Translations under genes and position numbers: made by a program | The notes under the pieces: generated by a model | The model's database searches: none | Seen by the model: only the letters and a program-made list of their open reading frames with translations | What the model was told of the DNA's origin: nothing | Shown here: in pieces, positions 3,128 to 61,177 of the stretch | How the letters are laid out: every line of letters starts with the position of its first letter | Position numbering within the stretch: position 1 is the first letter of the stretch | From: Dyella sp. | Lineage (GTDB): Bacteria; Pseudomonadota; Gammaproteobacteria; Xanthomonadales; Rhodanobacteraceae | Assembly: GCF_036384435.1 (NCBI RefSeq) | Contig: NZ_DASVMI010000030.1 | Span: 57,946-121,945 of the forward strand | Direction: 5' to 3' | DNA length: 64,000 nt

Positions 3128-3358
3128 CACAACAGTCCAAAGATGTCCGTGTTCTCTAAACCAAAAAGTGGCCAATTTGGCCAAGTTCTTGTTTATGGAA
3201 AGCATAAGTTGGCCGGCTTTGGCCGCAGTTAGGCAGGGCAGGGCCTCGTAGGCCATTTAGTCCTTTGGGGCTGCAACGACCCGATCGCGTGCCGAGACGC
3301 GCGCGACGGCGGACTGACTGAATGACTTAAGGTGACGGCAGATGGCTCATTGGCCGAC

Positions 3359-7983: not shown

Positions 7984-8805
7984 TCAAATCAGCGCTGCGT
8001 CGACAATCCGTTCATTGTCGACCAACCAGCGCTCTTGAAAGGAGCGTCGTGCCGCCCAGCCGATCTCTCTGAGGTACCAACTGTTCACCGAGCCTCCTAC
8101 CACTGCTCCGATAGCAGGAATAGCTTGAAGTGCCTTTCGCTTCGTCAGGTTAACGCCAAGCTGCTTTGCCAGTGTTTTGATGGCGATCACCCCGGCCTCC
8201 TTGCTCAACCTGTCCGAGGCGGCTTTCTCGGCAATCTTCTTCCATGTGGTCTTGGCGATGGTTACCTGGATCATGCGCAAGGCGGTCAGCGCTGCCGTTT
8301 TCTCGGCCATTTCATTGGCGCTTGAAGCGGAAAGTACGCCCAGCATGAAATCCTTGTCATCCTTCGTTTTCGCTTCGTAGCCGTAGCAGGCACCGATCTT
8401 GTGGATCGTGCGCAAAGCCAGGACCAGTACTGCGGGAATATCTGCAGCAATACCAAAAATGCCAGCCGCGCCTGTGGCGGCGCCCTCCGCACCGGCAATA
8501 CCTATGGCCCAGTTGTGGACCTCATCAGCCAACTTGTCGGACCGCGCCAGATCAAGTGACTTAAGCTCTTCGAGGCTCGACACGCCCGCGTCGCGAAGGA
8601 TGTCCCCGGTATCCGTTAGCCAGTCTGCCGCGGAAGAGGACAGCTCCAGCAACCCTTGGATGGCCGATACCGGCACGATCTTGTTGATCAGCCAGGACAC
8701 TGGCGTCAATGCGATACCCACGGCCTGCGAGACGACAGAGGGCTCTTCCGCCTTCCAGGCTGTAATAGCGCTGAGTTGCTTCGTCTCATATTCCGTAAGA
8801 TTCAT
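7984..8805 (-). CDS. EcsC family protein
   Basis: AEGAATGAAGIFGIAADIPAVLVLALRTIHKIGACYGY...KALQAIPAIGAVVGGSVN motifs. Confidence 0.85.
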   Translation of the reverse strand: MNLTEYETKQLSAITAWKAEEPSVVSQAVGIALTPVSWLINKIVPVSAIQGLLELSSSAADWLTDTGDILRDAGVSSLEELKSLDLARSDKLADEVHNWAIGIAGAEGAATGAAGIFGIAADIPAVLVLALRTIHKIGACYGYEAKTKDDKDFMLGVLSASSANEMAEKTAALTALRMIQVTIAKTTWKKIAEKAASDRLSKEAGVIAIKTLAKQLGVNLTKRKALQAIPAIGAVVGGSVNSWYLREIGWAARRSFQERWLVDNERIVDAALI

Positions 8806-26971: not shown

Positions 26972-28696
26972 TCACGCACCCAGGGTCTCGGCAATCGCGG
27001 CCAACCACAGTGCCACGGCGACCGCACCGGGATCGGCATGACCACGGGTGCGATCGCCCAGGTACGAAGAGCGGCCCAGGCGGGGGGACATCTGACTGGT
27101 GGCTTGTGCGCCCGCTTGTGCTGCATCAGCGGCCGCATGGGCCACCGATGCGACAGCCATCGCCCGGCCGGCCGCTTCGGCGATCGCATCCGCGGCGGGG
27201 ATGAGCGCGTCGAGCATGGTGCGATCACCAGCGCGCCCGCCACCGAGATCCTGCACGCCTTCCACCCCCGCACGAAAAGCATCCCGCCAGGCATCGATGT
27301 CGCTGGCACTGGACGATGCCGAAAGCGTCACTGCCGCGCGCAACATGAATACAGCATACAGAGGCCCTGACGTTCCACCGATCACGCGGCGAAGAATGCC
27401 CGACAACGCAGCCAGCACAGACGCAGGATGGGATGCATCCAGCGCAGGGAGCGCATCGAGCATCGCGTTGACACCACGACTCAGGCTCAGGCCGATATCG
27501 CCATCGCCAACGATCGAATCGAGCTCCGTCAACTCACTTTCCGCCTCACGTAGCGCCGCTGCGACGCCATGCAGGCAGGCCACGAAGCGATCTGCGTCGG
27601 CAGGTTGCGCCCACGTCGGTCCAACAAGCGCGGAATCACCCGCATGCAGGTCATCCGTCGCAGGCGCTTTGACCGGCGGCGTTGAAGCCGGATGCGTCGC
27701 GGTAGTCCAGGCAGCCGCTGCCGTTGGCGCAAGAAGCCGCTCAAGCCTGGACGGATCGAGTCGCAGCAAGGACACCGAGCAACCGGGCATTTCAAGCGCA
27801 CTGAGAAAGGTACCCGCCCATGAAGCTTCTGCAGCGATGCCGGCCTGGTGCAGGCGAGCAAGCACATGGCGATTGACAATCGCCAACTCCTGCACCGCGC
27901 TACCTCCCAGGTTATTGATCAATACCGCGACCTTATCACCTGCACGCAACTGGCTGGATGCAAGCAGGCGATCCATCATCGTATCGACCATGGCATCGGC
28001 GACTTCGACATGCCCGCGTTGCGTTCCCTTCTCGCCATGAATACCCAGGCCATATTCGACTTCGTCGGCGCCCAGCTCGAATCCGGCTTTTCCTGCGGCC
28101 GGAACGATGCACGGTCCCAGGCCGAGCCCCATACTGAATACGTTATGGCTGGCCGCACTCGCTTCGTTGACTACCTCGGCAAGCGACAAGCCCGCAGCTG
28201 CCGCGGCACCGGCCACCTTGTGCACGAAGACGGTGCCGGCGATTCCGCGCCGCCCGACGGCTCCTGTTGCTTCGAGTGCTACGTCATCACCGACCACGAC
28301 CATCTCAACACGCAGCCCCGAAGCGCGGGCAATTTCAGCAGCAAGCCCGAAGTTGAGGCGATCTCCCGTGTAATTCTTCACGATCATCAAGGTCCCGGCA
28401 GGTCCGGTAACCGTACGCAAGGCCGCCAGTACAGCATCCACACTGGGTGAAGTGAAAACTTCGCCGATGACGGCTGCCGTCAACATGCCTTCACCGACAT
28501 AGCCGGCGTGCGCAGGCTCATGTCCTGCGCCTCCTCCCGAGATAATCGCGACCTTTCCGGCTGACGCATGCGCCGCATGGTCACTGCGTACGATGACGTT
28601 GTGTCCTTCCACGCGGGAAAGGCGGCCATCGGCGGCCACCAGGCCTTCAACCATGTCCTGCACGACATGCAGCGGGTCATTGATGAGTTTTTTCAC
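26972..28696 (-). CDS. dhaK: Dihydroxyacetone kinase, fused DhaK-DhaL (ATP-dependent type)
   Basis: SGGGAGHEPAHAG, KNYTGDRLNF, GIHGEKG, GDGDIG, GDRTMLDAL, GRSSY, DPGA; GTG start at 28696. Confidence 0.92.
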   Translation of the reverse strand: MKKLINDPLHVVQDMVEGLVAADGRLSRVEGHNVIVRSDHAAHASAGKVAIISGGGAGHEPAHAGYVGEGMLTAAVIGEVFTSPSVDAVLAALRTVTGPAGTLMIVKNYTGDRLNFGLAAEIARASGLRVEMVVVGDDVALEATGAVGRRGIAGTVFVHKVAGAAAAAGLSLAEVVNEASAASHNVFSMGLGLGPCIVPAAGKAGFELGADEVEYGLGIHGEKGTQRGHVEVADAMVDTMMDRLLASSQLRAGDKVAVLINNLGGSAVQELAIVNRHVLARLHQAGIAAEASWAGTFLSALEMPGCSVSLLRLDPSRLERLLAPTAAAAWTTATHPASTPPVKAPATDDLHAGDSALVGPTWAQPADADRFVACLHGVAAALREAESELTELDSIVGDGDIGLSLSRGVNAMLDALPALDASHPASVLAALSGILRRVIGGTSGPLYAVFMLRAAVTLSASSSASDIDAWRDAFRAGVEGVQDLGGGRAGDRTMLDALIPAADAIAEAAGRAMAVASVAHAAADAAQAGAQATSQMSPRLGRSSYLGDRTRGHADPGAVAVALWLAAIAETLGA

Positions 28697-28838
28697 GTGT
28701 GGCTCCTTGGGGACGGGGCAGACGCTTCGCGCATGCGACCCAGGGAGAGCCGCATCATGCGCATCGGCCAAAGCATGCGCCGTTCAAAGGGAGAATGTAC
28801 AGGCTTGGAAAACCTTCGCGACAGGCTCTTGGGTCTCT

Positions 28839-32073: not shown

Positions 32074-33195
32074 TCACCACACATCCACGATCAGTTCCAG
32101 AGCAGGCGGCTGGCCATCACTCCATGCCTTGATGGCAATGGTCGCCGGCACGAAACTCTGCCCCCGATATGCCGGGGATGCGGTGTATCGATTCACATGA
32201 CCGGTGCGCAAGAGTTCGACCACGTCGTGATCGATCTTCTGCTTGGCTTTCCTGGCCGCCGTGGACACAAAGCAGGTGTTGGCCGGCACGTCATCGCCGC
32301 CCAGCTCCGGTGGAAACAGCAGGACTTTTTCAAGCAAGCCTTCTGCCGCCAGTTCTTCCAGTTGCTGGCGTGAGGACACATCGGAGAAATCCGGCGGTGC
32401 GGGCGGCTCCACGACCGACGCGCGATCACGCGCGCTGAACTGGCCTGTACCCGCGGCCGCCAGACGCTCGAGCAAGGCACGCCGGCCGTGCTCTTTCGAC
32501 CATTGCATCTCGGTATCGGTGATGACGGTGGCAATGAGCCACTCCATTCGGCCGTGCGGCAACTCGATTGCCGTAGGCAATACGTCTTGCGCATGGGCAA
32601 TCAGCAAATGCACATGGTCCTGCGCACCAACCTGGATATTCTCTACGGTCAGCCCGTCATAATCATGGACGCGCTGGAGTATGCCCGCATCATGCAGCAG
32701 CTCGGCTTGCGCCACCCACTGCAGCACCCACAACGGCCATTCGGCATCTTCGTGTGCCAGCACCATGAGTTCGTAGCCGTAGCCGGCGCGACCGGCAGGC
32801 GCGTCCACGCCGGACCTGGATTGCAAGGTGGCAGAGGCCCGATCCAGGCGCCCCAAGGGATCTTGCCCGGCGACCAGGTCCGAAGACGCGACCTTCGTTG
32901 GCATATCCGTATTGGTCAGGCCAAAGGTGGTGTAGACCCAGGCATCTTCGGACAGCTTGTTTGCACGGATCGCATGCAGGCCGCCGCCTGGCCAGGTACC
33001 CACGAGATGGCCGAGTTTCAGGAGATCATCCGGCAGCTTGCCGATGTGCTCGACATAGGCACGCACGCGCGCTGCATAGCCTTCGTCCCACGACGTCACC
33101 GGTTGATGATCGGTGTTCGCGTGCGGAGCGGCGACCTCAGGTCTCACGGTATCCTTACCCAGCAGGGCAACTACCCGTTTCCAAAGCCCAGCCAT
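32074..33195 (-). CDS. Suppressor-of-fused (SUFU)-like domain protein fused to an uncharacterised C-terminal domain
   Basis: WPGGG, YTTFGLTN, GYGYELM, LIATVIT..E motifs; C-terminal LEKVLLFPPELGGDDVPANT domain. Confidence 0.7.
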   Translation of the reverse strand: MAGLWKRVVALLGKDTVRPEVAAPHANTDHQPVTSWDEGYAARVRAYVEHIGKLPDDLLKLGHLVGTWPGGGLHAIRANKLSEDAWVYTTFGLTNTDMPTKVASSDLVAGQDPLGRLDRASATLQSRSGVDAPAGRAGYGYELMVLAHEDAEWPLWVLQWVAQAELLHDAGILQRVHDYDGLTVENIQVGAQDHVHLLIAHAQDVLPTAIELPHGRMEWLIATVITDTEMQWSKEHGRRALLERLAAAGTGQFSARDRASVVEPPAPPDFSDVSSRQQLEELAAEGLLEKVLLFPPELGGDDVPANTCFVSTAARKAKQKIDHDVVELLRTGHVNRYTASPAYRGQSFVPATIAIKAWSDGQPPALELIVDVW

Positions 33196-37484: not shown

Positions 37485-37582
37485 GTTTCCCCCGCGACTC
37501 ACGATGATGCCGCTTATCGCCGTTCCAGCGGGGCGAATTTATCCGGCATCCGCACCATAAATGCAGGGCGATGCTCTCAAGG

Positions 37583-37615
37583 CTGGCAAGCCGCGACCAG
37601 GTCGCGGCTTGCCAG
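37583..37615. repeat. 33-bp palindrome (16-bp perfect arms, 1-nt spacer)
   Basis: CTGGCAAGCCGCGACC-A-GGTCGCGGCTTGCCAG. Confidence 0.9.
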
Positions 37616-38105
37616 TGCGTGGTGCATGCTTCGCGCTGAGCTTGAGCGAGACATCCCGTAACGATCAACGAAGAGGGAGGCCACTTCGCGAAGTTACGTC
37701 GCTACCTACGATGGTTTGACTTTGGGCAACCTCAGTACCCGTCCTGTCCGTCGTCCCGCCGCAGCCGAGTCCCTGAGACTCGGCTCTGATGCGGCTGGAG
37801 GCTCCAGATTTCGGCCTTCGCCGATTTTGATGAGAGGATCTCAGCGGCGCCTTGCGGAGGGCTCTTCATGCCGACAAGGGCAAGCGGCCACGGATTGACA
37901 ATAGAGGCGGCCACCCCGTGGCATTCGCCAAATAAAAATTTAGAACGTCTAAATTTAATTTGGCGAATGATTTCAGCATGTCAAGCTAAATATTGTGCCC
38001 GATTTTCACAGATAACCAACCTGACCATCATTGAAGTGGAGCTTGTCACAATAAATAATTGAGGGTTCCCTACGATTCGCCGACCGAACGGAAGAGCCCT
38101 CCCCC

Positions 38106-41100
38106 ATGTCGTCTCAAGACTTGCGCTCCTCGCTGCTGCAAAGCTCGGATGTTCTGCCCTTGTCCAGCCCGCAGCTGGATATTTTTCATGATCACCTCAT
38201 GAAAGGCAGTACTCCCGCCTACAATATCGGCGGCTATCTGGATTTTCACGGTTCAATGGATATTCAACGCTTCGAAAAAGCGCTGAATCTGGCCATAAGA
38301 AAACACGATTCGCTACGTATCATGCTAATGGCCGGCGACGACGACCTGCCAGGCCAGCGAATCATGGCCGATATGCCAGCCGATCTGATGTTGCTGGATT
38401 TTTCCCAGGATGCGTCGCCGGACGACTCGGCGCGCACATGGATGCGCAACAGCATGAACCAGCCGTTCGTCCTGGTGGGTGCCCCGCTTTTTCGCCATGC
38501 ACTGATCAAGCTTGCCGATGCGCACTATCAATGGTTCATCTGCGTGCATCACCTGATCGCCGATGGCTGGGCGATGGATACGTTGTTCCAGTCCTTCGCG
38601 GGCCTGTACAGCGCGCTCGAACAGGGTGAAGAGCCGCAGCTGGCCGCTCCCTCCTATGCCCGATTCGTCGAATCGGATCGCCTTTACCAGGCATCGGCCA
38701 GCTTTACCAAGGACCGCGACTACTGGCATGAAAAGTATCGGGATCTTCCCGATCCACTGCTCTTGGCACGACACGCCGTGCACGACCAGACGCCCATCAG
38801 CGGTGAACATGTCTGGCGCCTCGATGACGCATTGAACGCACGCATCGACGACCTGGCCACCACCCATCAGTCCACGCGGTTTCAGGTAGTTCTGGCGATC
38901 TTCCATGCCTTTTTCCAGCGCCTGCACCAGCGCGAGGAGCTGGTCATCGGCTTATCCGTGCTCAACCGCAAGGATGCCGACGCCCGCAGGACTGTCGGCA
39001 TGTTCACCAATGTGTCGGCCATGCGGCTGGCCTTTGACCTGCGCGGTTCGTTCGTCGATCTGCTCAAGGCCATCGCGCCTTCGCTGCGCCAGGATTATCG
39101 CCACCAGCGCTTTCCGATCGGGCAATTGAACAAGGGGCTGGGCTTGTTTGCTCGCCAGCGCGACCAACTCTACGAACTTTCCATCTCGTATGAAAACGGC
39201 GGCGTACCGCTCCGGTTCGGCGACGTCACGGCGTTTGTATTCAAGTGCACGAACGATTACGAAAGCACACCATTGCGCCTGTGCGTGCGCGATGACCTGC
39301 ATCGCCGAGAGACATCGCTGTTCTTCATCTTTGGCCACGCCTATTACAGCCAGGCCGAGATCGCCGTGCTGCAAGATCGTTTCATGCGCTTCACGCAGGC
39401 GCTTCTCGCCGATCCGCAGAGTTCGCTTGACAGCTTGCCGATCGTCACCCCGCAGGAGCGCGCCCAGTTCGACGCCTGGAATGCAACGGCTATCGACTAT
39501 CCCCAGGACGCATGCGTGCATGCATGCTTCGAGCAGCAGGCCGCACGGCGACCCGATGCCATCGCACTGGTGCACGAGGATACGAGCCTGACCTATGCCG
39601 AGGTCGATGCGCGCGCAAATCAGTTGGCACAGCACCTGATCGCGCTGGGTGTGGGCCCGGACGATCGGGTAGCGCTGTGCGCCGCGCGACAACCGGCAAC
39701 CATCGTTGCCATGCTCGCGATCCTGAAGGCCGGCGGCGCATACGTGCCGATTGACCCGTCCTATCCGGCTGAGCGCGTCGCTTATGTGCTGGGCGATGCA
39801 CAGCCACGACTGCTGTTGGCCGACCGGGCCGGTCGCCAGGCACTGGGAGCGCCGCCGGCCCAACTGCCAGTGCTCGACCTGGATGGCGCCGCCCTCGCCT
39901 GGGCGAGTTTGTCGCGCGAGCGTCCGCAGGTAGAAGGCCTGGATTCACGGCGGCTGGCCTACGTGATCTACACCTCCGGTTCTACGGGCCAGCCCAAAGG
40001 CGTGATGGTCGAGCATCGCCAGGTATGCCATCAGGTCACCGCACTGCGGCATGCCTACCAGTTCACCGCCGACGACCGCCTGTTGCAGTTCGCGTCCATT
40101 GCGTTCGACATGTCCGTGGAGGAAATCTTTCCCGCGCTGCTTACCGGCGCGACGCTGGTATTGCGCACGGATGCCTGCCTGGAATCGCCGGCCGCCTTCG
40201 CCGCGTTCTGTGCCGTCCACCAGCTCACGTACCTCAACCTGCCCAGCACGTTCTGGGCTCAACTGGCGTTGGCCCAACCGGAGCTGGAACTACCCGTCTG
40301 CCTGCGCCAGGTCAGTGCCGGCGGCGACGCCATGAGCCTGGCCGCCGCTTCGGCGTGGCTGCGTCGCCAGAGCCATCGTCCTGCCCTGTTCAATGCATAT
40401 GGCCCCACCGAAACCACGGTCAACGCCACCATGCTTGCGGTGGATCGGCCCATGGAAGTGTCATGCATCGGACGCCCGATCGCCAACACGCGGGCCTACC
40501 TGCTCGATGCATATCGTCAACCTGTGCCGGTCGGCGCCGTCGGCGAGCTTTACATCGGCGGCGCGGGTGTTGCCCGTGGTTATCTTGATCGCCCCCAGCT
40601 CACCATGGAGCGTTTTCTGAGCGATCCATTCTCGCCGGTTGCCGATGCACGTATGTATCGCACCGGCGACCTTGCTCGTTTTCTACCCGATGGCAACATC
40701 GAATTCCTCGGACGCAATGACCATCAGGTCAAGATTCGCGGCTACCGCATCGAACTGGGCGAGATCGAGACGCGATTGGCCAACCATCGGCAAGTCCACG
40801 AAGCGGTGGTGCTTGCACGCGGCGAGTCGCATGATCGTCGCCTGGTCGCTTATGTGGTGGGCGACGGGGACGCCAACGACCTGCGCGCGCATCTTGCCGT
40901 CGAATTGCCGCCCTACATGATCCCTTCGGCGTTTGTCCGCCTGGATGCCTTTCCGTTGACGCCCAACGGCAAACTCGATCGCAAGGCGTTGCCCGAGCCT
41001 GACGAGGCAGCGTTCGCGCATCGCGCCTATGAGGCACCGCGCGATGGCATCGAGGCGTCGCTGGCCCAGTTGTGGTGCCAGTTGCTGGACCTGGCACGCG

Positions 41101-44100
41101 TTGGTCGACACGATCATTTCTTCGAGCTGGGCGGACATTCGCTGATCGCGATTCGCCTGCTCGGCAAGGTCTCCCAACAGTTCGGTGTCTCGCTACCGCT
41201 GGCAAGCCTGTTCAATCATCCCACGCTGGCAGCCCTGGCCGAGGCGATCGCCTCCGATCATGACGGCGCAGGGACGGCGACGCTGCCTCCCATCGTCGCG
41301 GTGTCGCACGGCGATCACATCCCGCTTTCCTATGCACAGCAACGGCTGTGGTTCATGGCCCAGCTCGATCAAGCCAACGCCACCTATCATGTCTCCCTGG
41401 TGCTGCAGTTGGAGGGCGCGCTGGACATCCCGGCATTGCAACAAGCACTCGACCGCCTGCTCCACCGCCATGAAGCCTTGCGCACCGTTTTCCATGCGAT
41501 CGACGGCGAGCCGCGCGCGTCGCTGCTTCCAGCACATACGCCGTTTCCGCTGGTGGTGCATGACCTGCGCCAATCCCCTCATGCCGATGAGCTGCTGGCC
41601 CGATATAAGCACGACCATGCGCACGCGGCTTATGACATGGAGCATGGCCCGCTGGTGCGCGCCAACGTGATTCGCCTGGGTGACCGCCGGCATGTACTTC
41701 AGCTGGGCATGCACCATATCGTCTCCGATGGCTGGTCGATCAACCTGCTGGCACGCGAGATCAACGCGCTCTACGTCGCGTTTGCACAGGGACAGGCTGA
41801 CCCGCTGCCCGCGTTACGTGTGCAGTACCCCGACTACGCCGCTTGGCAACATACCGTGCTGTCGAGCGAACGACTGCGTGACCAGGCCGCGTATTGGAAG
41901 GACGCCTTGCATGGTGCGCCCGACCTGCTGCACCTGCCCACCGATCATCCGCGACCGTCGCGCCAGTCGTTTGCCGGTGCGATGCGCCCCATACGCTTGG
42001 ACGTTGCACTGACGCGTCGGCTGCGCCAGCTGGGCAAGCAGCATGGCATGAGCCTGTATATGCTGGTAACTGCCGCATGGGCCGCGGTGCTGGCCAGGCT
42101 GTCGGGCCAGGACGATGTCATGATCGGTACCTTGTCGGCCAATCGCGGCCAGCGCGAAATCGAGCCCTTGATCGGCTTTTTCGTCAGTACCTTGCCTTTG
42201 CGCATCGACCTGTCGGGCGAACCCGATGCCCTGACGTTGTTGTCGCGCGTGCGGCGCACGACGCTGGCGGCACAGGAAAACCAGGATCTTCCGTTCGAGC
42301 AGATCGTGGACATCGCCAAGCCCTCGCGTCGGCTGGATCATTCGCCGCTGTTCCAGGTGTTGTTTGCCTGGCAGAGCAACGACAAGACCGGCTTTGAACT
42401 GCCAGGTCTGACGATCAGCCAGTCGCCTATGTCGCTGGAGTCGATTCGCTACGATCTCGAGCTGCACCTGTACGAAACCGAAGACGCTATCGTCGGCGGC
42501 CTTGGCTATGCCACGGCGCTCTTTGACGAAACGACCATCGACCGCCATATCGGTTACCTGAGCACGACCCTGGAGGCCATGGTGGCCGATCCGGCTACGG
42601 CCTTGCGCGTGCCGTTGCCCGATAGCCACGAGCTGGCCCAGCTCGCGCGCTGGAACGATACCGCTGTCGATCCTGTCTCGGTCGATGCTATCCATCGCCT
42701 GTTCGAGCAGCACGCAGCCAGCTCGCCGCAGGCCACGGCATTGATATGCGACGACCAGGCACTCTCCTATGGCGCGTTGAACGCCAGGGCCAATCAATGG
42801 GCTCGTCACCTGCGATCGCTGGGGGTCGGCACGGGAGTGCGCAGCGACCCGCGCATCGCCCTGTGCGCGGAGCGCGGCTTCGACATGATCTGCGCACTTT
42901 TGGCCATTCTCAAGGCCGGTGCCTGCTACGTACCGCTGGACCCGTCCTATCCCAGCGAACGGCTGCGTCAGGTGCTGTCCGAGGCCGGTGCCGAGCTGGT
43001 ACTGCACGATACCGCAGGGCATGAAGCGCTCGGGGTATCCTCACTGGCCCGATATCGCTGCGTGGATATCGGCGAGCTTGCCATGCATGGCACCGACCTG
43101 GCCGAAGAGAACCTTCCATCGCCCGAGGGCACCGACGCCAGCAGCCTTGCCTATGTCATCTACACGTCCGGCTCTACCGGCACGCCCAAGGGTGTGGCGA
43201 TGCCGCACCGGCCGCTGGTCAACCTCGTGCAATGGCAGCTGGCCGAAGCCGTAAAGGCCGGTTTGCCGGCTCCGAAAACACTGCAATTTGCTGCACTTGG
43301 ATTCGACGTCGCGTTCCAGGAGATCTTTACCACCCTGTGCGCGGGTGCATCCCTGGTACTGGTCGATACACGCACGCGCATGCAGTTCGGCAAGCTGATC
43401 GCGCTGCTGCGCCACCAACGCGTGCAACGGGTATTCCTGCCCTATATCGCGCTACAGGCCCTGGCCGAGGCGGCCGAAGATATCCGCGATGACGGCACGG
43501 CGCTGCTGCCCGAGTTGCGCGCGATCATCGTAGCAGGGGAGCAACTGCGCCTCACGCCGCAGATCCAGCGCCTGTTCACCCGTCTGCCGGCCTGCGACCT
43601 GCACAACCACTATGGCCCGACCGAGACCCACGTGGTCACCGCACAGGTCCTGCCGGCCGGCAGCATCGCCACATCACTGCCCCATGTGCCGATTGGTCGT
43701 CCCATCGCCAATGCACGCACCTATGTGCTCGATGGGCATGGACAGCCCGTGCCGGTGGGAGTCGCCGGCGAACTGTACATCGGCGGCTTGAGCATCGCGC
43801 GCGGCTATCTGGGGCGCGATGACCTGACTGCCGCACGCTTTCTTGCCGATCCGTTCGATACGCGTACCGGAGCGCGCATGTATCGCACCGGCGACCTGGC
43901 GCGGCACCTGCCAGATGGCCGCCTGATATTTCTTGGTCGCAACGATCACCAGGTCAAGCTGCGCGGGTTCCGTATCGAGCTGGGTGAAATCGAGGCACGC
44001 CTGGCCGAACATGCCAGCGTGCGCGAGTGCGCGGTGATCGCACGCAACGACGCGCAAGGCGAGATTCAACTGGTGGCCTACGTCGTCGCGGGCTCGCATG

Positions 44101-47100
44101 CCGATGACAATCCTGCGACATGGCACGCCTACCTGGCCGCCACGCTGCCGGCATACATGGTGCCTGCCGCATTCGTCACGCTGGAGGCTATTCCTTTGAC
44201 GGCCCATGGCAAGCTCGATCGTCAGGCACTGCCCGCACCCGACGAACAGGCCCTGGTCCGCGCCCATTACGAAGCACCGCGTGGCGATGTGGAAACCAGG
44301 CTTGCCGCACTCTGGCAGGATCTCCTGGGCGTCGCCCAAGTCGGTCGCCGCGATCAGTTCTTCGAACTCGGCGGCCACTCTCTGATCGCGGTACGCCTGC
44401 TCAGCCGCATCGCCCAGGCATTCGGTGCCAGCCTGCCACTGGCCGACCTGTTTGCGTGGCCGGTATTGCATGATCTGGCCGCACGCATTGCCCAACAGCA
44501 GCGCTCGACTCCCCACCAGCAGACCGGCATCCCACGCGCCACGCGCGGGGAGATGCTACCCCTGTCGCATGCACAGCAACGCCTGTGGTTTCTCGCCCAG
44601 CTCGATGGCGACAGCGCGACTTACCACATCCCGATTGCCGTGCAACTGGACGGCCCGCTGGATGTGCCCGCGCTGCGCGAAGCGTTGCAACAAGTGTTCG
44701 CACGCCATGAAAGTCTGCGCACGGTATTCGTCGCGCGACACGGCCAGCCGCATGCCCGGCTGTTGGACAGCAATGCCGAGGTTGCACTTCACCAGCATGA
44801 TCTTCGTCACTACGGTGCAAGCGAACGTGTAGACGCAGCCACCATACTGCTCGCCCGAGAGCGCAACCGGCCCTTCGATCTGGCGGCAGGGCCGCTGCTT
44901 CGCGCCAGTCTGCTGCGCACCGAAGAACAACAGCATGTATTGCAACTGACCTTGCACCACATCGTGGCCGACGGCTGGTCGCTGGGCATTCTCTCCCGAG
45001 AGCTCGGCGCCTGCTATGCCCAGGCACAGGGTTCGCGTTCCGACATGCTGGCCCCACTGCCGATCCAGTACGCCGACTATGCGGCATGGGAGCATGGCTG
45101 GCTGGTCAGCGAACGCATGCTTGAACAGGTCACTTTCTGGCAAGACCAACTCGCCGGATCGCCATCCTTGCTTGAGCTTCCCACGGATCGACCACGCCCG
45201 GCACGGCAGTCGTTCGAGGGTGCCTTTGTTCCGATCGAGCTGGATGCCAACTTGACGCAGGATCTCAAGCGGCTCGCGCAGCACCACGGCGCGACGCTTT
45301 TCATGATCGTGCTGGCCGCGTGGGCGCTGGTGCTTTCGCGACTATCCGGGCAGCGCGACATCGTGATCGGCACGCCGACGGCCGGTCGGGGACGACCGGA
45401 ACTTGAATCGCTGATCGGCTTTTTCGTCAACACGCTGCCGCTGCGCATCGACCTGCATGAGGCCACCGATGTCGCATCACTGCTACGCCACGTTCGCACG
45501 ATCGCACTGGATGCCCAGGCACATCAGGAGCTTCCCTTCGAGCGCATCGTGGAGCTGGCCAAGGTGCCTCGTCGCATCGACCACACACCGCTGGTCCAGG
45601 TGCTGCTGGCGTGGCAGAGCCATGACGAAGGTTCCTGGAACCTGCCGGGAATGACCGCCACACCGGCGCATGGCGACTTTGACTGGGTGAAGTTCGACCA
45701 GGAGTTGATTCTGAGCGACGCCGACGGCCACATCCGGGGCGGCATCAACTATGCCACGGCGCTGTTCGATCGATCGACCATCGAACGCCACGCCGGCTAT
45801 CTGCGCAACGTGCTCAAAGCCATGGCTGCTGGCGATACGCGCCCGCTGCATCGCATCCCGATGCTCGCCGACGACGAACGCGAGCAGTTGATAGAAATGT
45901 GGAACCGCACCGATATGGCGGTCGAATCGTTGTGCCTGCATCAACAGGTGGAGCGTCACGCCCACGAATCGCCGCATTCGCTGGCGCTGGTCAGCCAACA
46001 GGAACAGGTGACCTATGCCGACCTGAACGCACGGGCCAACCACCTCGCGCATCACCTGGCACGCATGGCTGTGCGACCGGGCGATCGCGTAGCATTGTGT
46101 GTGGAGAAGGGGGTCTCCATGTTCGTCGGCCTGCTGGCGATCATGAAAGCCGGTGGCGTGTACGTGCCGCTGGATCCGGCGTACGCCTCTGCACGCCTGG
46201 ACCATATCCTCCTCGATGCAACACCGCGTCTGCTGCTTTGCGACGAGATCGGTCGCGAGGCCCTGGGAGCCGGTGCGAGAGGCCGGTTGCCGGCGCTCGA
46301 TATGGATCAGGCATCGGCATGGGAGCATGAGCCAGGCGACAATCCGGCCGTGCCAGGCCTCGATGCCCGGGCCTTGGCGTATGTGATCTACACGTCCGGC
46401 TCCACCGGCGCGCCCAAGGGTGTGATGGTCGAGCACCATGGCATCATCAATCTGGGCCACTCGCTTGGTGAGCGCCTGGGTATCGACGCAGATAGCCGCA
46501 TCAGCCAGTTTGCCTCCGCCGGCTTCGACGCCAGCATCTTCGAGTGCTCGATGGCGTTCACCGCGGGTGCGGCGCTGTACCTGCCGTCGGTCGCCGAACG
46601 GCAGAGCCCATCCGCGTTCATGGCCTTCATCGGACGCCAGCGCATCACCCATGCCACGCTGCCACCGGCGTTCCTGCAGGGCCATGCCGAAGCCCCGTGC
46701 TGGGCGCACCGCCCAATGTTGATCTTTGCGGGCGATGCATCCAGCCCTGGCCTGTTTCGTCACTGGAGCCGCTACGCAAGACTTGCCAATGCCTATGGCC
46801 CCACCGAGATCACCGTCTGTGCCAGCACCTGGGTCTGCCCCGATGAGCCAGGCGAACTGTCCGTGGTGCCGGTAGGGCGTCCCATCGGGAATACTCGCCT
46901 GTACTTGCTCGACGAACACGGCCTGCCCGTGCCTCGCGGCAGCATCGGCGAGCTGTATATCGGGGGTGCGAACGTCGCGCGCGGCTACCTGGACCGCCCT
47001 GCGCTGAATGCGGAGCGCTTCGTCTCCGACCCATTCGATGATAAGCCACAGGCACGCATGTATCGTAGCGGCGACCTGATGCGCTACCTTCCCGATGGCA

Positions 47101-48854
47101 ACCTGGTTTTCCTCGGCCGCAACGATCATCAGGTCAAGCTGCGCGGGTTTCGCATCGAGCTGGGCGAGATCGAGGCCAATCTGGCGAGCCACGCCGCGGT
47201 TCGCGAGTGTGTGGTGCTGGCGCGCGAAGACGTACCCGGCGACAAGCGACTGGTGGCCTATGTCGTGCTGGACAAGCCGGCTGCCAATGCCATTGCGCAG
47301 CTACGCGAACACCTCGCCAAGCGCCTGCCCGAATACATGGTGCCCACGGCTTTCGTGGCCATGGAGGCGATGCCGCTGACCTCGCATGGCAAGCTCGATC
47401 GCAAGGCCCTGCCCGCCCCCGGCGACCAGGCGTTCGCACGACGCACCTATGCACCGCCGCAAGGCGTCGCCGAGCACGCGATCGCCACGCTGTGGGGTGA
47501 ACTGCTCGGTGTCGAACGCATCGGGCGACATGATCACTTCTTCGAGCTCGGCGGCCATTCGCTGCTGGTCACCCGGCTGGCTGCGCGCATGCACGAGCAG
47601 TTCGACAAACCAGTCGCCGTGCGTGACCTGTTCAATCACCCGGTGCTCAAGGACATGGCCGCGTTGATAAGCTCCAATAAGTCACGCGATCATGACATGC
47701 TCGACTTGGACGCCGAGTTGGTGTTGGATGAGACCATCCGTGCGTCTTCTGCGCCCCGCCAAGGCGACGAGCCGCAGCATATCCTGCTGACCGGCGCATC
47801 GGGGTTTCTCGGCGCATTCCTGCTTGTACGCCTGCTCGAATGCAGCCGTGCCGTCGTGCATTGCCTGGTTCGCGGTGATGACGATGCGGATGCGCGAGCC
47901 AGGCTGGATGCCAACATGCGCCAGCTCGGCCTGGATGAGTACGAGCGGGCGCGCGTGTCGGTGATCGCTGGCGACCTCGCCTTGCCCTTGCTGGGCCAGG
48001 ACCGCACGCGCTTCGATCACTTGGCCAACCTGATCGACGTGATCTACCACAACGGCGCCTGGGTCAATTCGCTGCATACCTACGAAAGCCTCAAGGCCGC
48101 CAACGTGCTCGGTACGCAGGAGATTCTGCGGCTTGCCGCACAAGGCACGCCCAAGCATGTGCACTACGTATCCACGCTGAGCACGATACCGCTGGCGCAA
48201 ACGGCGGGGGTACACGTCACCACCGAGAGTGAACTGGCCGAGCACTGGCGAGGGCTGGCATCGGGCTATGCGCAGAGCAAATGGGTCGCCGAACGCCTGT
48301 TGCGTATCGGCGGTGAACGCGGCATTCCCTATACGATCTACCGTCCGACACATATCGGCGCGGCACGTGACAGCGGCGCCAGCAACCCCAGCGACACCTG
48401 GAGCCTGTTCATTGATGCCTGCCTGCGGCTTGAGCGTGTTCCCGAGGTTGATACCGGCATCAACTCCCTGCCGGTCGATTACATGAGTGCATGCATCGTT
48501 GAGCTATCCATGCGCGATGACATTCATGGACGAAGCTTCAATCTCGCCAGCATGCAGTCATTCCAGCTGAGCGAATTGACCCGTCAGATCGCGGCCATCG
48601 AGGAACTGTCGGTCAAGACAGTCGACTATCGCGCGTGGCGCCGCCAGTGCGCGGCGCAGCCGGCGACCAGCCGCCTGGCGGCGGTCATGCCAGCCGAACT
48701 GGTCGAAGAAGATGCCGAGGAGCCCTCGCGCATCCCGCTTGGCAATGCCGTGGAGGACCTATCGCGCCACGGCATGCCCTGCCCGGCACCGAGTACCGAG
48801 ACATTGCGGAAATACGTGCGCTGGCGTTACCGACAAAGCGTGCAACCGGCATGA
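38106..48854 (+). CDS. Trimodular NRPS Cstarter-A-T-C-A-T-C-A-T-R (terminal thioester reductase)
   Basis: Three HHxxxDG C domains, three YTSGSTG.PKG A domains, three GGHSL T domains; terminal TGASGFLG...VSTLST...YAQSK reductase. Confidence 0.97.
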   Translation: MSSQDLRSSLLQSSDVLPLSSPQLDIFHDHLMKGSTPAYNIGGYLDFHGSMDIQRFEKALNLAIRKHDSLRIMLMAGDDDLPGQRIMADMPADLMLLDFSQDASPDDSARTWMRNSMNQPFVLVGAPLFRHALIKLADAHYQWFICVHHLIADGWAMDTLFQSFAGLYSALEQGEEPQLAAPSYARFVESDRLYQASASFTKDRDYWHEKYRDLPDPLLLARHAVHDQTPISGEHVWRLDDALNARIDDLATTHQSTRFQVVLAIFHAFFQRLHQREELVIGLSVLNRKDADARRTVGMFTNVSAMRLAFDLRGSFVDLLKAIAPSLRQDYRHQRFPIGQLNKGLGLFARQRDQLYELSISYENGGVPLRFGDVTAFVFKCTNDYESTPLRLCVRDDLHRRETSLFFIFGHAYYSQAEIAVLQDRFMRFTQALLADPQSSLDSLPIVTPQERAQFDAWNATAIDYPQDACVHACFEQQAARRPDAIALVHEDTSLTYAEVDARANQLAQHLIALGVGPDDRVALCAARQPATIVAMLAILKAGGAYVPIDPSYPAERVAYVLGDAQPRLLLADRAGRQALGAPPAQLPVLDLDGAALAWASLSRERPQVEGLDSRRLAYVIYTSGSTGQPKGVMVEHRQVCHQVTALRHAYQFTADDRLLQFASIAFDMSVEEIFPALLTGATLVLRTDACLESPAAFAAFCAVHQLTYLNLPSTFWAQLALAQPELELPVCLRQVSAGGDAMSLAAASAWLRRQSHRPALFNAYGPTETTVNATMLAVDRPMEVSCIGRPIANTRAYLLDAYRQPVPVGAVGELYIGGAGVARGYLDRPQLTMERFLSDPFSPVADARMYRTGDLARFLPDGNIEFLGRNDHQVKIRGYRIELGEIETRLANHRQVHEAVVLARGESHDRRLVAYVVGDGDANDLRAHLAVELPPYMIPSAFVRLDAFPLTPNGKLDRKALPEPDEAAFAHRAYEAPRDGIEASLAQLWCQLLDLARVGRHDHFFELGGHSLIAIRLLGKVSQQFGVSLPLASLFNHPTLAALAEAIASDHDGAGTATLPPIVAVSHGDHIPLSYAQQRLWFMAQLDQANATYHVSLVLQLEGALDIPALQQALDRLLHRHEALRTVFHAIDGEPRASLLPAHTPFPLVVHDLRQSPHADELLARYKHDHAHAAYDMEHGPLVRANVIRLGDRRHVLQLGMHHIVSDGWSINLLAREINALYVAFAQGQADPLPALRVQYPDYAAWQHTVLSSERLRDQAAYWKDALHGAPDLLHLPTDHPRPSRQSFAGAMRPIRLDVALTRRLRQLGKQHGMSLYMLVTAAWAAVLARLSGQDDVMIGTLSANRGQREIEPLIGFFVSTLPLRIDLSGEPDALTLLSRVRRTTLAAQENQDLPFEQIVDIAKPSRRLDHSPLFQVLFAWQSNDKTGFELPGLTISQSPMSLESIRYDLELHLYETEDAIVGGLGYATALFDETTIDRHIGYLSTTLEAMVADPATALRVPLPDSHELAQLARWNDTAVDPVSVDAIHRLFEQHAASSPQATALICDDQALSYGALNARANQWARHLRSLGVGTGVRSDPRIALCAERGFDMICALLAILKAGACYVPLDPSYPSERLRQVLSEAGAELVLHDTAGHEALGVSSLARYRCVDIGELAMHGTDLAEENLPSPEGTDASSLAYVIYTSGSTGTPKGVAMPHRPLVNLVQWQLAEAVKAGLPAPKTLQFAALGFDVAFQEIFTTLCAGASLVLVDTRTRMQFGKLIALLRHQRVQRVFLPYIALQALAEAAEDIRDDGTALLPELRAIIVAGEQLRLTPQIQRLFTRLPACDLHNHYGPTETHVVTAQVLPAGSIATSLPHVPIGRPIANARTYVLDGHGQPVPVGVAGELYIGGLSIARGYLGRDDLTAARFLADPFDTRTGARMYRTGDLARHLPDGRLIFLGRNDHQVKLRGFRIELGEIEARLAEHASVRECAVIARNDAQGEIQLVAYVVAGSHADDNPATWHAYLAATLPAYMVPAAFVTLEAIPLTAHGKLDRQALPAPDEQALVRAHYEAPRGDVETRLAALWQDLLGVAQVGRRDQFFELGGHSLIAVRLLSRIAQAFGASLPLADLFAWPVLHDLAARIAQQQRSTPHQQTGIPRATRGEMLPLSHAQQRLWFLAQLDGDSATYHIPIAVQLDGPLDVPALREALQQVFARHESLRTVFVARHGQPHARLLDSNAEVALHQHDLRHYGASERVDAATILLARERNRPFDLAAGPLLRASLLRTEEQQHVLQLTLHHIVADGWSLGILSRELGACYAQAQGSRSDMLAPLPIQYADYAAWEHGWLVSERMLEQVTFWQDQLAGSPSLLELPTDRPRPARQSFEGAFVPIELDANLTQDLKRLAQHHGATLFMIVLAAWALVLSRLSGQRDIVIGTPTAGRGRPELESLIGFFVNTLPLRIDLHEATDVASLLRHVRTIALDAQAHQELPFERIVELAKVPRRIDHTPLVQVLLAWQSHDEGSWNLPGMTATPAHGDFDWVKFDQELILSDADGHIRGGINYATALFDRSTIERHAGYLRNVLKAMAAGDTRPLHRIPMLADDEREQLIEMWNRTDMAVESLCLHQQVERHAHESPHSLALVSQQEQVTYADLNARANHLAHHLARMAVRPGDRVALCVEKGVSMFVGLLAIMKAGGVYVPLDPAYASARLDHILLDATPRLLLCDEIGREALGAGARGRLPALDMDQASAWEHEPGDNPAVPGLDARALAYVIYTSGSTGAPKGVMVEHHGIINLGHSLGERLGIDADSRISQFASAGFDASIFECSMAFTAGAALYLPSVAERQSPSAFMAFIGRQRITHATLPPAFLQGHAEAPCWAHRPMLIFAGDASSPGLFRHWSRYARLANAYGPTEITVCASTWVCPDEPGELSVVPVGRPIGNTRLYLLDEHGLPVPRGSIGELYIGGANVARGYLDRPALNAERFVSDPFDDKPQARMYRSGDLMRYLPDGNLVFLGRNDHQVKLRGFRIELGEIEANLASHAAVRECVVLAREDVPGDKRLVAYVVLDKPAANAIAQLREHLAKRLPEYMVPTAFVAMEAMPLTSHGKLDRKALPAPGDQAFARRTYAPPQGVAEHAIATLWGELLGVERIGRHDHFFELGGHSLLVTRLAARMHEQFDKPVAVRDLFNHPVLKDMAALISSNKSRDHDMLDLDAELVLDETIRASSAPRQGDEPQHILLTGASGFLGAFLLVRLLECSRAVVHCLVRGDDDADARARLDANMRQLGLDEYERARVSVIAGDLALPLLGQDRTRFDHLANLIDVIYHNGAWVNSLHTYESLKAANVLGTQEILRLAAQGTPKHVHYVSTLSTIPLAQTAGVHVTTESELAEHWRGLASGYAQSKWVAERLLRIGGERGIPYTIYRPTHIGAARDSGASNPSDTWSLFIDACLRLERVPEVDTGINSLPVDYMSACIVELSMRDDIHGRSFNLASMQSFQLSELTRQIAAIEELSVKTVDYRAWRRQCAAQPATSRLAAVMPAELVEEDAEEPSRIPLGNAVEDLSRHGMPCPAPSTETLRKYVRWRYRQSVQPA

Positions 48855-48899
48855 TGGCAATGCCACGGTTCCTGGCCTGCCATCTGGAGCCGTGGTACC

Positions 48900-49595
48900 T
48901 CACGGCAAGCGTTCGGGGTGATAGGCCTTGATGAACGGATCGTAGAGTGCCTGGGCTTGCGACGCCGTCATGCCGCCGACGGCGGTGCCGTGATCCTTGG
49001 CCTGGATGCCCAGGACATAGCGATCCCTGGGCAGCGCCACCACCTGCACGGGCCCGCCGTCGTCCTTGCGTGGTACCTCGATGACGAGGCGATCGCCGGT
49101 CGGTTCGGGCAAGGCGACGGATAGATAGTCGGGGCCGCCATAGGCCGGCAGCAGCTCTGGATTGGCCTTCATGCCGTCGATGGTATCCAGCATCATCTGC
49201 AAGGTGGCCTTGGTCATGTTGCGCTGGCGCTCGAATGTGGCTTTCACGCCAGGCGCGACGTCGGGCTTGTCCAGCCCAGGCGAGCGCGTGTCCGTCAGCG
49301 ATACATCCACCTCTCGCCCATTGTCGTCACCGTAAATGGCCGTGATGGCGTTGAATGTGCAGCTCCAGCGCTTGAACGGCAGGCCGCCGATCGTGGCCTT
49401 GGGCGGCATCGCCTTGACCAGTACATGACCTTCGCACTCAGCCGTCGATGCCGCATCCTGCTGCGCGCTGTCGGGACCCGACGGGGCACTGGCCTGCTGT
49501 GCGTCGCCATGACGTCCGCTGCAAGCGGCGAGCAGCGTGGCCAAGAACCACGCCAGCCCATGGCGTGCACGCGGAGTCGATCGTAGAAAAGCCAT
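48900..49595 (-). CDS. Hypothetical lipoprotein
   Basis: Lipobox LLAAC after a basic/hydrophobic leader; coding-like 231-aa ORF. Confidence 0.7.
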   Translation of the reverse strand: MAFLRSTPRARHGLAWFLATLLAACSGRHGDAQQASAPSGPDSAQQDAASTAECEGHVLVKAMPPKATIGGLPFKRWSCTFNAITAIYGDDNGREVDVSLTDTRSPGLDKPDVAPGVKATFERQRNMTKATLQMMLDTIDGMKANPELLPAYGGPDYLSVALPEPTGDRLVIEVPRKDDGGPVQVVALPRDRYVLGIQAKDHGTAVGGMTASQAQALYDPFIKAYHPERLP

Positions 49596-60403: not shown

Positions 60404-61177
60404 CTACGGCGTCGCGTCGCGGCGTTGAAAATCGCAGCGGTGCCGGCTTGGCATGACTTCGAGTGTGTCAGCCAATTGCAAGCGTGCCTTGGCACCGCCT
60501 TCGCGCACGTATGCCAGTTCCTTGGCGGTGATCAGCACGATCGGCACCATGCGTACCGGAGACAGCGGCATGTCCTGGATCACGTCGGGGAAGTCGGGGC
60601 GCGGACCGCCCAGCAGGATGCCCAGGCAATCGTCTTCGCTGATGAAATGCCCGGGTACCTGCACAGCAATATCCGGCGCCTGGCTGACGCCTGGCAGTTC
60701 CATCGACAACACGCCGTAGGTCTCCAGGCGATCGACGATCCCGCCCGCGCCGGCCACGAGCTCGCCCACATGGTGCAATAACTGAAACGCCCAACTGTCC
60801 TTCAACCGGCTGACGTCGCCCCGCCGGCCGGCGAAAGCCGGATCGATATCCGACGTTTCCAGGAACAGCTCCATGCCGAAGCCATTGAGCGGCGGCTGCA
60901 ATGACTCGAAAGGATCGGACATGCCGTCGGTGGCAAGCACGATAGCGTGGTCACGACGCACCACACGATACGCCTGGCGCAAGGTCGGCCATGCCACACC
61001 GCCGGTGAGCTGCGGGCTGATCAGATTGGCCAGTACATCGCGCTCGGGTGTACCGACCGAGGCCCAGTACGCATCCAGGCGCTGGTGGGTGACGTCATCG
61101 GCCGGCTGCCCCGAACGCGCCGGCTCGTTCGGCGGCGTTGCTTGATTGTGCTTGCGAAACCGGTCAAACCATCCCAT
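60404..61177 (-). CDS. SUFU-like domain protein
   Basis: WPTLRQAY, LATDGMSDPF, GFGMELF, VLSMELP, LITAKEL. Confidence 0.8.
   Translation of the reverse strand: MGWFDRFRKHNQATPPNEPARSGQPADDVTHQRLDAYWASVGTPERDVLANLISPQLTGGVAWPTLRQAYRVVRRDHAIVLATDGMSDPFESLQPPLNGFGMELFLETSDIDPAFAGRRGDVSRLKDSWAFQLLHHVGELVAGAGGIVDRLETYGVLSMELPGVSQAPDIAVQVPGHFISEDDCLGILLGGPRPDFPDVIQDMPLSPVRMVPIVLITAKELAYVREGGAKARLQLADTLEVMPSRHRCDFQRRDATP

Follow-up and report, generated by a model that had tools for sequence, protein, structure and literature searches.

What does a bacterium make with a single nonribosomal peptide synthetase (NRPS) gene that ends in a reductase and has no biosynthetic partners around it? This question is raised by a 64,000-nucleotide stretch of Dyella sp. 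(RefSeq assembly GCF_036384435.1, contig NZ_DASVMI010000030.1, positions 57,946 to 121,945 of the forward strand; hereafter the window), in which positions 38106..48854 of the plus strand encode one NRPS of 3582 residues. An earlier sequence-only reading of this DNA had proposed a stand-alone synthetase for an N-acyl-(Arg/Orn/Lys)-Pro-Phe aldehyde (Orn, ornithine). Our analysis indicates that this self-contained three-module NRPS probably makes N-acyl-L-Orn-L-Pro-L-Phe-al. In the proposed route, the first condensation domain (C1) would transfer a fatty acyl group, taken from primary metabolism as acyl-CoA or bound to an acyl carrier protein (ACP), onto the alpha-amine of the L-ornithine loaded on the first carrier domain (T1). 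Two LCL condensation domains would then add L-proline and L-phenylalanine, and the terminal reductase (R) would release the thioester with NAD(P)H to give the N-acyl tripeptide aldehyde, which may persist, equilibrate with the carbinolamine/imine formed by the ornithine delta-amine, or be reduced to the alcohol.

Domain architecture and pocket codes of the synthetase

The 10.7-kb gene is a single unbroken open reading frame (ORF) with an ATG start and the domain order C-A-T-C-A-T-C-A-T-R (A, adenylation). Pfam finds three Condensation domains, three AMP-binding domains (each with AMP-binding_C), three PP-binding domains and one NAD_binding_4 domain (residues 3228-3462) in the protein, and neither an epimerisation nor a thioesterase domain. 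The gene and its domains are as follows (all on the plus strand; Cs, starter C domain):

38106..48854 (+): NRPS gene, Cs-A(Orn)-T-C-A(Pro)-T-C-A(Phe)-T-R with predicted substrates (ORF, Pfam, motifs)
38106..39500 (+): C1, predicted starter (lipoinitiation) condensation domain, residues ~1-465, HHLIADG at 148 (PDB ranking, identities, tree)
39501..41060 (+): A1, DMENSGAVNK, predicted L-ornithine (code; Orn positions of cormycin- and syringotoxin-type synthetases)
41061..41285 (+): T1 carrier, LGGHSL, Ser1012 (Pfam PP-binding 986-1048, motif)
41286..42680 (+): C2, predicted LCL-type elongation, HHIVSDG at 1203 (PDB ranking)
42681..44240 (+): A2, DVQFIAHVVK, predicted proline (code, Val236/Gln239)
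44241..44525 (+): T2 carrier, LGGHSL at 2088 (Pfam, motif)
44526..45905 (+): C3, predicted LCL-type elongation, HHIVADG at 2284 (PDB ranking)
45906..47420 (+): A3, DAFTIAAVCK, predicted phenylalanine-like (code)
47421..47705 (+): T3 carrier, LGGHSL at 3148 (Pfam, motif)
47706..48854 (+): R, terminal NAD(P)H-dependent thioester reductase, with TGASGFLG, HYVST and GYAQSKW (Pfam NAD_binding_4, PDB matches)

The motif HHxxxDG is complete in all three condensation domains, the carrier motif LGGHSL of T1 is at residue 1008, and core motif A3 of the adenylation domains is found at residues 623, 1687 and 2763. In the reductase, TGASGFLG is at 3229 and GYAQSKW at 3387. The repeated C-A-T modules identify the protein as a type I modular NRPS, as do HHxxxDG, the core motifs of the A domains (Lys517 among them) and the phosphopantetheine site GGxS. 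The architecture of the sequence-only reading, a starter-initiated line with all catalytic motifs intact and neither epimerisation nor thioesterase domain, was thus recovered from Pfam and the motifs, and the gene is real, intact and evidently functional.

Stachelhaus codes were read from a MAFFT alignment of the A domains to GrsA-PheA. Since the reference returns its published code DAWTIAAICK at positions 235-517, the numbering is sound. The codes obtained, DMENSGAVNK for A1, DVQFIAHVVK for A2 and DAFTIAAVCK for A3, are identical to those that had been aligned by hand. A2 carries Val236 and Gln239, the hallmark of most proline domains (PMC12283262), and this code is invariant in the family described below. 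A3 matches the GrsA phenylalanine code at eight of ten positions, with the conservative changes W239F and I330V. These codes bear out the assignment of A2 to proline and of A3 to a phenylalanine-like residue.

Ranked against solved structures, C2 is closest to Txo2/Txo1 (E 1e-122) and TycC6 (3.5e-71), as against TycB1 (5e-31) and SrfA-C (1e-25), and C3 is closest to Txo2 (9e-127) and TycC6 (9e-72), as against TycB1 (6e-37) and SrfA-C (9e-35). We take the teixobactin modules Txo1/Txo2 (E 1e-121 to 1e-127 over the two domains) and TycC6 as LCL references, and TycB1 and SrfA-C as DCL references. On this ranking, which places C2 and C3 far closer to the LCL than to the DCL references, both are classed as LCL type. 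Because there is also no epimerisation domain, an all-L peptide is expected, as the sequence-only reading had it.

A conserved single-gene family

Scanning genomes with a two-sequence C1 profile retrieved colinear homologues of the NRPS, whereas single-sequence C1 patterns retrieved none. Six are uninterrupted over their full length and one is frameshifted; they share 54-70% identity with the window gene and come from Rhodanobacteraceae and Acetobacteraceae of soil and roots. Their full-length identities are:

Rhodanobacteraceae bacterium ZG21-1 (L081): 69.9%
Dyella tabacisoli (L082): 66.2%
Rhodanobacter sp. A1T4 (L083): 65.8%
Dyella silvatica (L001/L084), frameshift-split in the assembly: ~66%
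Dyella subtropica (L096): 62.8%
Uncultured Acetobacteraceae metagenome-assembled genome (L086): 55.5%
Rhizosaccharibacter radicis, Acetobacteraceae (L085): 54.2%

Every catalytic motif is kept across the homologues, including HHxxxDG of C1 and the reductase motifs, and the three pockets read DMEN(S/I/A/V)GAVNK, DVQFIAHVVK and DA(F/M)TIAA(V/I)CK. That motifs and codes are retained at 54-70% identity argues for functional constraint. No flanking gene is common to the window and any family locus, and neighbours are shared only between the two Acetobacteraceae loci; thus the gene alone is the conserved unit, a true single-gene cluster. From this distribution, the gene appears to have crossed between Gamma- and Alphaproteobacteria on its own. 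The NRPS of the window is therefore not a one-off but a member of a small, mobile, uncharacterised single-gene family.

Two of the homologues depart from the common pattern. In D. silvatica RBB189, the ortholog (L001 499-11167 / L084 9980-20648) lies in two overlapping frames that split in the C-terminal subdomain of A2, at the equivalent of window residues 1975-2004, which reflects a true frameshift (pseudogene) or else an error of the assembly. Over C1-A1-T1-C2-A2-T2 and R, the D. subtropica gene L096 (9962-20785, NODE_6) shares ~70% identity with the window gene, but identity falls to 57% in C3, 45% in A3 and 60% in T3, and A3 has the pocket DTEDVGTIGK, which is acidic like those of domains for basic residues. 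This suggests a natural C3-A3-T3 swap, in which a basic C-terminal residue would replace Phe while the acyl-Orn-Pro part and the reductase are retained. An exchange of the terminal residue is what would be expected if this residue determines which enzymes a warhead peptide targets, with Phe suited to chymotrypsin-like and a basic residue to trypsin-like enzymes; the observation is suggestive only.

D. subtropica also has a second, remoter C-A-T-C-A-T-C-A-T-R gene (L002 23-11212, NODE_7) with 50% identity. Its N-terminal C domain reads HHVIDDH and is 21% identical to C1, and its pockets are DSALLGEVWK, DVQFIAHVVK and DALVIGAVCK.

Integrity of the assembled gene

The DNA is present in two root metagenome runs and one soil metagenome run (97-100% of sampled words), and the window matches the ENA scaffold BAND20-1_SAMN13481414_METAG-scaffold_70, on which the same 3582-residue gene is called; exact-sequence look-ups of the NRPS and of two neighbours returned no match. 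Separate assemblies of each of the three metagenome runs span positions 37500-49500 at even depth and without a mismatch. Their only break is at 43948-43978, where a 31-mer of the A8 motif occurs that is repeated inside the gene; depth is higher there and equal on both sides. Across this point, the six unbroken homologues and the frameshifted D. silvatica gene are colinear with the window gene. Even depth with 0 mismatches, together with the colinear homologues, makes a chimeric join very unlikely, and an assembly chimera was ruled out on these grounds.

Reductive release and the fate of the product

The last 380 residues of the NRPS align end to end with the terminal reductase of a polyketide synthase (PKS), 8V1X, and with MxaA, 4U7W (E ~1e-65; 7e-65 for MxaA). 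The nucleotide-binding motif TGxxGxxG and the Thr/Tyr/Lys motifs stand in register with those of MxaA and 8V1X and are conserved in the family, so reductive release is well supported, and the redox-competent R domain of the sequence-only reading holds. By this alignment, R is assigned as an intact MxaA-type thioester reductase. The NCBIfam model MxcG extends over C3-A3-T3-R (residues 2149-3573), with a score below its cut-off.

Should the reductase work in a four-electron mode, or a host dehydrogenase finish the reduction, the stable product would be N-acyl-Orn-Pro-phenylalaninol, a cationic lipopeptide without a warhead. We regard this outcome as a distinct though minor possibility. MxaA, which is among the best structural relatives of R, carries out a four-electron reduction to the alcohol, and several genes for short-chain dehydrogenases/reductases (SDR) lie within the window. 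However, the SDR genes are not conserved beside the homologues, and we know of no sequence rule that separates two-electron (aldehyde) from four-electron (alcohol) reductases.

A somewhat more doubtful fate, already raised as an alternative in the sequence-only reading, is that the free delta-amine of ornithine would trap the aldehyde within the molecule, a turn templated by proline closing a 12-membered cyclic carbinolamine/imine from side chain to tail, by analogy with the imine closure of nostocyclopeptide and koranimine. The protein has an R domain, and the ornithine delta-amine would be the one primary amine to stay free if A1 loads ornithine and C1 blocks the alpha-amine. The central proline is strictly conserved in all homologues; with the ornithine assignment, this makes the cyclic alternative somewhat more concrete. 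Macrocyclic imines formed after reductive release have established precedent (PMC7551626). On the other hand, a 12-membered ring with three amides would be strained, and the basic-type residue in place of Phe in L096 better fits P1 tuning of a linear inhibitor.

Substrate of the first adenylation domain

The sequence-only reading gave A1 a basic residue (Arg, Orn or Lys) and placed its pocket near a hydroxy-ornithine code. The basic residue stands, but neither hydroxy-ornithine nor the generic choice is the best reading. We queried the protein database with the stretch of A1 that contains the pocket and read the pockets of the 46 best matches. Most have the form D-x-E-(D/S/N)-(I/V)-G-(T/S/A)-(V/I)-x, and two carry a DMEN pocket: Pseudoalteromonas sp. 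MMG007 (DMENSGAVN, identical) and Pseudomonas corrugata (DMENMGAVN). In P. mediterranea (L174), P. brassicacearum and relatives, the synthetase runs Cs-A(DVWHLSLIDK)-A(DMENMGAVNK)-A(third module)-A(DLKNVGSDVK)-A(DSALIAEVW...). In P. viridiflava (L186), two domains of Thr type come after A(DLEHNTTVSK)-A(DILQFGLICK)-A(DLKNVGSDVK)-A(DMENMGAVNK).

These orders can be set beside peptides of established composition. PMC3039948 gives cormycin A as FA-Ser-Orn-Asn-Hse-His-aThr-Dhb-Asp(3-OH)-Thr(4-Cl) and syringotoxin B as FA-Ser-Dab-Gly-Hse-Orn-aThr-Dhb-... (FA, fatty acid; Hse, homoserine; Dab, diaminobutyrate; aThr, allo-threonine; Dhb, dehydrobutyrine), and brasmycin and thanamycin are predicted as Ser-Orn-Asp-x-His-... 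(PMC6433849). In both the cormycin and the syringotoxin frame, DLKNVGSDVK aligns with Hse and DMENMGAVNK with Orn. The A1 pocket is identical to this Pseudomonas ornithine pocket at nine of ten positions, differing only at position 299 (S versus M; S, I, A or V within the family). Over the whole domain, A1 is 54.2% identical to the ornithine-module A domain of L174, as against 47-50% to the other four A domains of that synthetase.

On this evidence, A1 most likely loads plain L-ornithine, and Arg, Lys and hydroxy-ornithine are less likely. We consider it quite unlikely that A1 instead loads N5-hydroxy-ornithine, Lys or Arg, in which case the line would yield a peptide able to form a hydroxamate or nitrone, or another cationic peptide. 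The A1 code shares seven of ten positions with DMENLGLINK, which we take to be the coelichelin hydroxy-ornithine code, and many of its nearest pocket relatives are Lys-like D-x-E-D/S; yet the match of nine in ten falls on chemically established ornithine positions in two Pseudomonas lipopeptide families. Moreover, no amino-acid N-hydroxylase (ornithine/lysine N-monooxygenase) is found in the 64 kb by Pfam or in the family flanks, and the movement of the gene between classes alone favours a universally available substrate. L-Ornithine, which is a universal metabolite, is therefore the best-supported substrate.

A hydroxamate siderophore synthetase, whose gene would be linked to an ornithine N5-monooxygenase and usually also to an acyl- or formyl-transferase and a TonB receptor/transporter, was considered and rejected: no ORF scanned with Pfam in the 64 kb matches such a hydroxylase, and the colinearity points to ornithine. 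Stachelhaus code strings were not found in full-text searches, and the DMEN codes are absent from the supplements of two A-domain specificity papers. The identical pocket DMENSGAVNK also occurs in unrelated marine gammaproteobacterial NRPSs, those of Rheinheimera sp. A13L (L195, after a Ser module) and Pseudoalteromonas sp. MMG007 (P0052).

The starter condensation domain and the acyl group

C1 is the first domain of the protein, beginning ~15 residues after Met1, and neither a carrier domain nor an NRPS or carrier gene lies upstream of it. Among solved structures, its best match is RzmA-Cs 7C1H (E 4e-43), followed by ObiF1 (5e-35), TycC6 (LCL; 8e-29) and the CDA starter (2e-28). While a protein-database search with C1 alone (a word-index search) returned relatives of at most 35% identity, the C1 profile also retrieved the first synthetases of Pseudomonas cyclic lipopeptides, 2105-residue proteins of the viscosin/massetolide type with the order C-A(Leu, DAWFLGNVVK)-T-C-A(Glu-type, DGWKLGVVDK)-T. 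The N-terminal domains of these synthetases are textbook lipoinitiation domains. C1 is 39-40% identical to the viscosin-type starters (38-40% over the loci that the profile retrieved), 33% to the cormycin starter, ~30% to RzmA-Cs and ~25% to C2 and C3 of its own protein. In a neighbour-joining tree of a small reference set of 13 domains, in which D. subtropica L002 was represented by its second and third C domains (with no effect on the starter clade), the starters (C1 with two homologues, RzmA-Cs, viscosin-type and cormycin) separated from the elongation C domains in 199 of 200 bootstraps. The structure ranking, the identities and this split led us to accept C1 as a starter C domain, as the sequence-only reading had it.

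The residues that line the acyl pocket of RzmA-Cs, Q36, Q136, Y138, M143 and R148, correspond to G43, I145, V147, A152 and M157 of C1. At the equivalents of Q36, Y138, M143 and R148, C1 thus has G/V/A/M where the Pseudomonas fatty-acyl starters have G/A/(L,V)/F and RzmA has Q/Y/M/R. In RzmA-Cs, the changes Q36G, Y138A and M143A and a shortening of R148 shift the specificity from C2 towards C10-C16, and a Met at the gate goes with the C6 acyl chain that CdaPS1 takes (PMC7804268). The pocket of C1 hence resembles the fatty-acyl kind and is unlike that of the acetyl-specific RzmA. By analogy with the Pseudomonas lipopeptides, the acyl chain is probably of medium length and possibly 3-hydroxylated. 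RzmA and HolA, too, draw straight on acyl-CoA and have neither a ligase nor an ACP gene linked to them (PMC7804268), so the absence of these genes beside the NRPS is no problem for an acyl starter.

It is very unlikely that C1 is silent, leaving a free-amine tripeptide aldehyde, or takes a non-fatty donor, for instance an aryl acid on a carrier protein whose gene lies elsewhere: the second-best structural match, ObiF1, has an N-terminal C domain that takes an aryl-carrier-bound donor and no acyl ligase or ACP is linked to the gene, but C1 falls inside the starter clade with the fatty-acyl starters, HHxxxDG is kept in all homologues, and RzmA and HolA do without such genes as well.

Several points weigh against N-acyl-L-Orn-L-Pro-L-Phe-al as the product and have to be set beside the evidence for it. 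The relatedness of R to the four-electron enzyme MxaA makes an alcohol product quite possible. The ornithine call rests on colinearity with known peptides, with a pocket that differs at position 299 and is partly shared with the coelichelin code. The 3-hydroxy-C10 starters of Pseudomonas have a bulky gate Phe, so the acyl-gate rule is not universal and the chain length cannot be predicted with confidence. The frameshift in D. silvatica may mean that the gene is dispensable there. Finally, the host organism is known from metagenomes only, and none of the RNA runs contains the NRPS gene.

Genomic neighbourhood and upstream region

Upstream of the NRPS lie genes for LysR, DsbA-like, GNAT and SRPBCC proteins, and downstream lie genes for a hypothetical protein, a SAM-dependent methyltransferase, TetR and MFS proteins. 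The methyltransferase, TetR, MFS, GNAT, SRPBCC and DsbA-like genes were considered as cluster members and rejected, because none is conserved beside any homologue. A Pfam scan covering nearly all ORFs of at least 200 residues that are not shadows of annotated genes found no other NRPS/PKS ORF in the 64-kb window, and no gene for an MbtH protein, a phosphopantetheinyl transferase, an acyl ligase or ACP, or an N-hydroxylase; "stand-alone", as the sequence-only reading called the NRPS, is therefore apt.

The region ahead of the gene has the following feature:

37930..38105 (+): AT-rich upstream region with a sigma-70-like site, a ribosome-binding site and a palindrome (consensus matches only)

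The sigma-70-like site matches the consensus as TTGAAG-17-AATAAT at 38031-38059, and GGAAGAG, a consensus match to a ribosome-binding site, stands ~10 nt ahead of the ATG. At 37936-37956, ~150 bp upstream of the NRPS start and within AT-rich sequence, is a perfect 9+3+9 palindrome, AAATTTAGA-ACG-TCTAAATTT. It was rejected as a family-wide operator, being missing upstream of the homologues; if it is an operator, it is specific to the Dyella sp. genome.

The G+C content is 0.636-0.650 in the body of the NRPS gene (40000-48000) versus 0.585-0.625 in the 6 kb on either side, which fits the variable genomic context and the cross-class distribution of the gene. A neighbouring GFO/IDH/MocA oxidoreductase is 76% identical to its counterpart in Dyella jiangningensis/AtDHG13, 71-72% to those of other Dyella, 69-71% to Rhodanobacter and 65-67% to Lysobacter, which marks the host as a Dyella-like Rhodanobacteraceae bacterium.

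Elsewhere in the window, a fused Dak1/Dak2 dihydroxyacetone kinase is encoded at 26972-28771 (-). Its best genome matches (~50-64%) are in Alphaproteobacteria (Acetobacteraceae, Inquilinus, Stellaceae) and not in Rhodanobacteraceae, so that horizontal acquisition is possible; as an accessory gene, it is uninformative as a marker of the host taxon. At 5107-5931 (-), ~32 kb before the NRPS, there is an integrase/transposase ORF of the IS3 family (rve, rve_3, HTH_21). The ORFs at 32074-33195 (-) and 60404-61177 (-) both encode bacterial SUFU-like (PF05076) proteins; in bacteria, this domain is frequently linked with immunity-type functions in polymorphic toxin systems. A 505-residue ORF with no Pfam match (6423-7940, -) adjoins an EcsC-family gene (7984-8805).

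What the family may mean

If the assignment is true, one 10.7-kb gene suffices for a new cationic lipo-tripeptide aldehyde. With no tailoring genes and with ubiquitous building blocks (fatty acyl thioester, Orn, Pro, Phe), it would be an unusually easy target for heterologous expression. The recurrence of the same codes in soil and root Rhodanobacteraceae and Acetobacteraceae points to a conserved ecological role. Such a role may, for example, be the inhibition of chymotrypsin- or subtilisin-like proteases or of the proteasomes of competitors, grazers or hosts. The third-module swap of L096 would in turn offer a natural case of an assembly line retuned at its terminal residue.

A bolder proposal, which we hold to be rather improbable as a whole, is that root-associated Proteobacteria use the family as a mobile platform of one gene for making warhead peptides. 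It would be built on a conserved acyl-Orn-Pro scaffold with an exchangeable terminus (Phe in the window gene, a basic-type residue in L096), in which the ornithine delta-amine would reversibly mask the aldehyde as the Pro-templated 12-membered cyclic imine/carbinolamine. Such a self-protecting pro-inhibitor scaffold, if true, is not known to have been described.

Comparison with known systems

Searches of the open-access literature, including those for Dyella/Rhodanobacter NRPSs, a Pro-Phe aldehyde and phenylalaninal, found no characterised product of this NRPS family and no acyl-Orn-Pro-Phe-al; within that literature, the statement of the sequence-only reading that no compound of the predicted structure has been characterised agrees with ours. 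The NRPS nevertheless has recognisable relatives for each of its parts.

At the N-terminus, RzmA and HolA, the synthetases of rhizomide and holrhizin, include the closest solved-structure match of C1 and resemble the window gene in lacking a linked ligase or ACP. They differ in that RzmA is acetyl-specific and the products of both are released by a thioesterase, while the window NRPS has a G/V/A/M pocket that predicts a longer acyl group and a reductase for release. The Pseudomonas lipopeptide lines (viscosin/massetolide, cormycin/thanamycin) have starter C domains of the same clade as C1. They make 9- to 22-residue depsipeptides with dual E/C domains, tandem thioesterases and several genes, in contrast to one three-module gene with predicted LCL domains and reductive release.

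At the C-terminus, the reductase shares TGxxGxxG and the Thr/Tyr/Lys context with the MxaA- and MxcG-type enzymes of myxalamid and myxochelin, but these give alcohols or amines on polyketide or catecholate scaffolds. R-terminated NRPSs are also found in Lysobacter: that of Lysobacter sp. CA199 (L003) shares 55% identity with the window NRPS over A1-T...R, its pockets including Pro-type and Phe-like ones, and that of Lysobacter enzymogenes (L004), possibly the Le-pyrrolopyrazine region, shares 47-49%. Unlike the window NRPS, L003 has no starter C domain, the first pockets of both are unrelated to ornithine, and both lie inside multi-NRPS clusters.

The predicted chemotype, an N-acyl di- or tripeptide aldehyde, is shared with the fellutamides, flavopeptins, tyropeptins, leupeptin and chymostatin and with the dipeptide aldehydes of gut-bacterial C-A-T-C-A-T-R synthetases. 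A P1 residue of hydrophobic or aromatic character would be in line with those of chymostatin and the tyropeptins. To our knowledge, none of the known peptide aldehydes has an acyl-Orn-Pro-Phe sequence, and none comes from Rhodanobacteraceae or Acetobacteraceae. Reductive release of peptide aldehydes by NRPSs is described in PMC7586950. Lipoinitiation, LCL elongation and reductive release are all textbook enzymology, and what is new here is the predicted compound family and not its mechanism.

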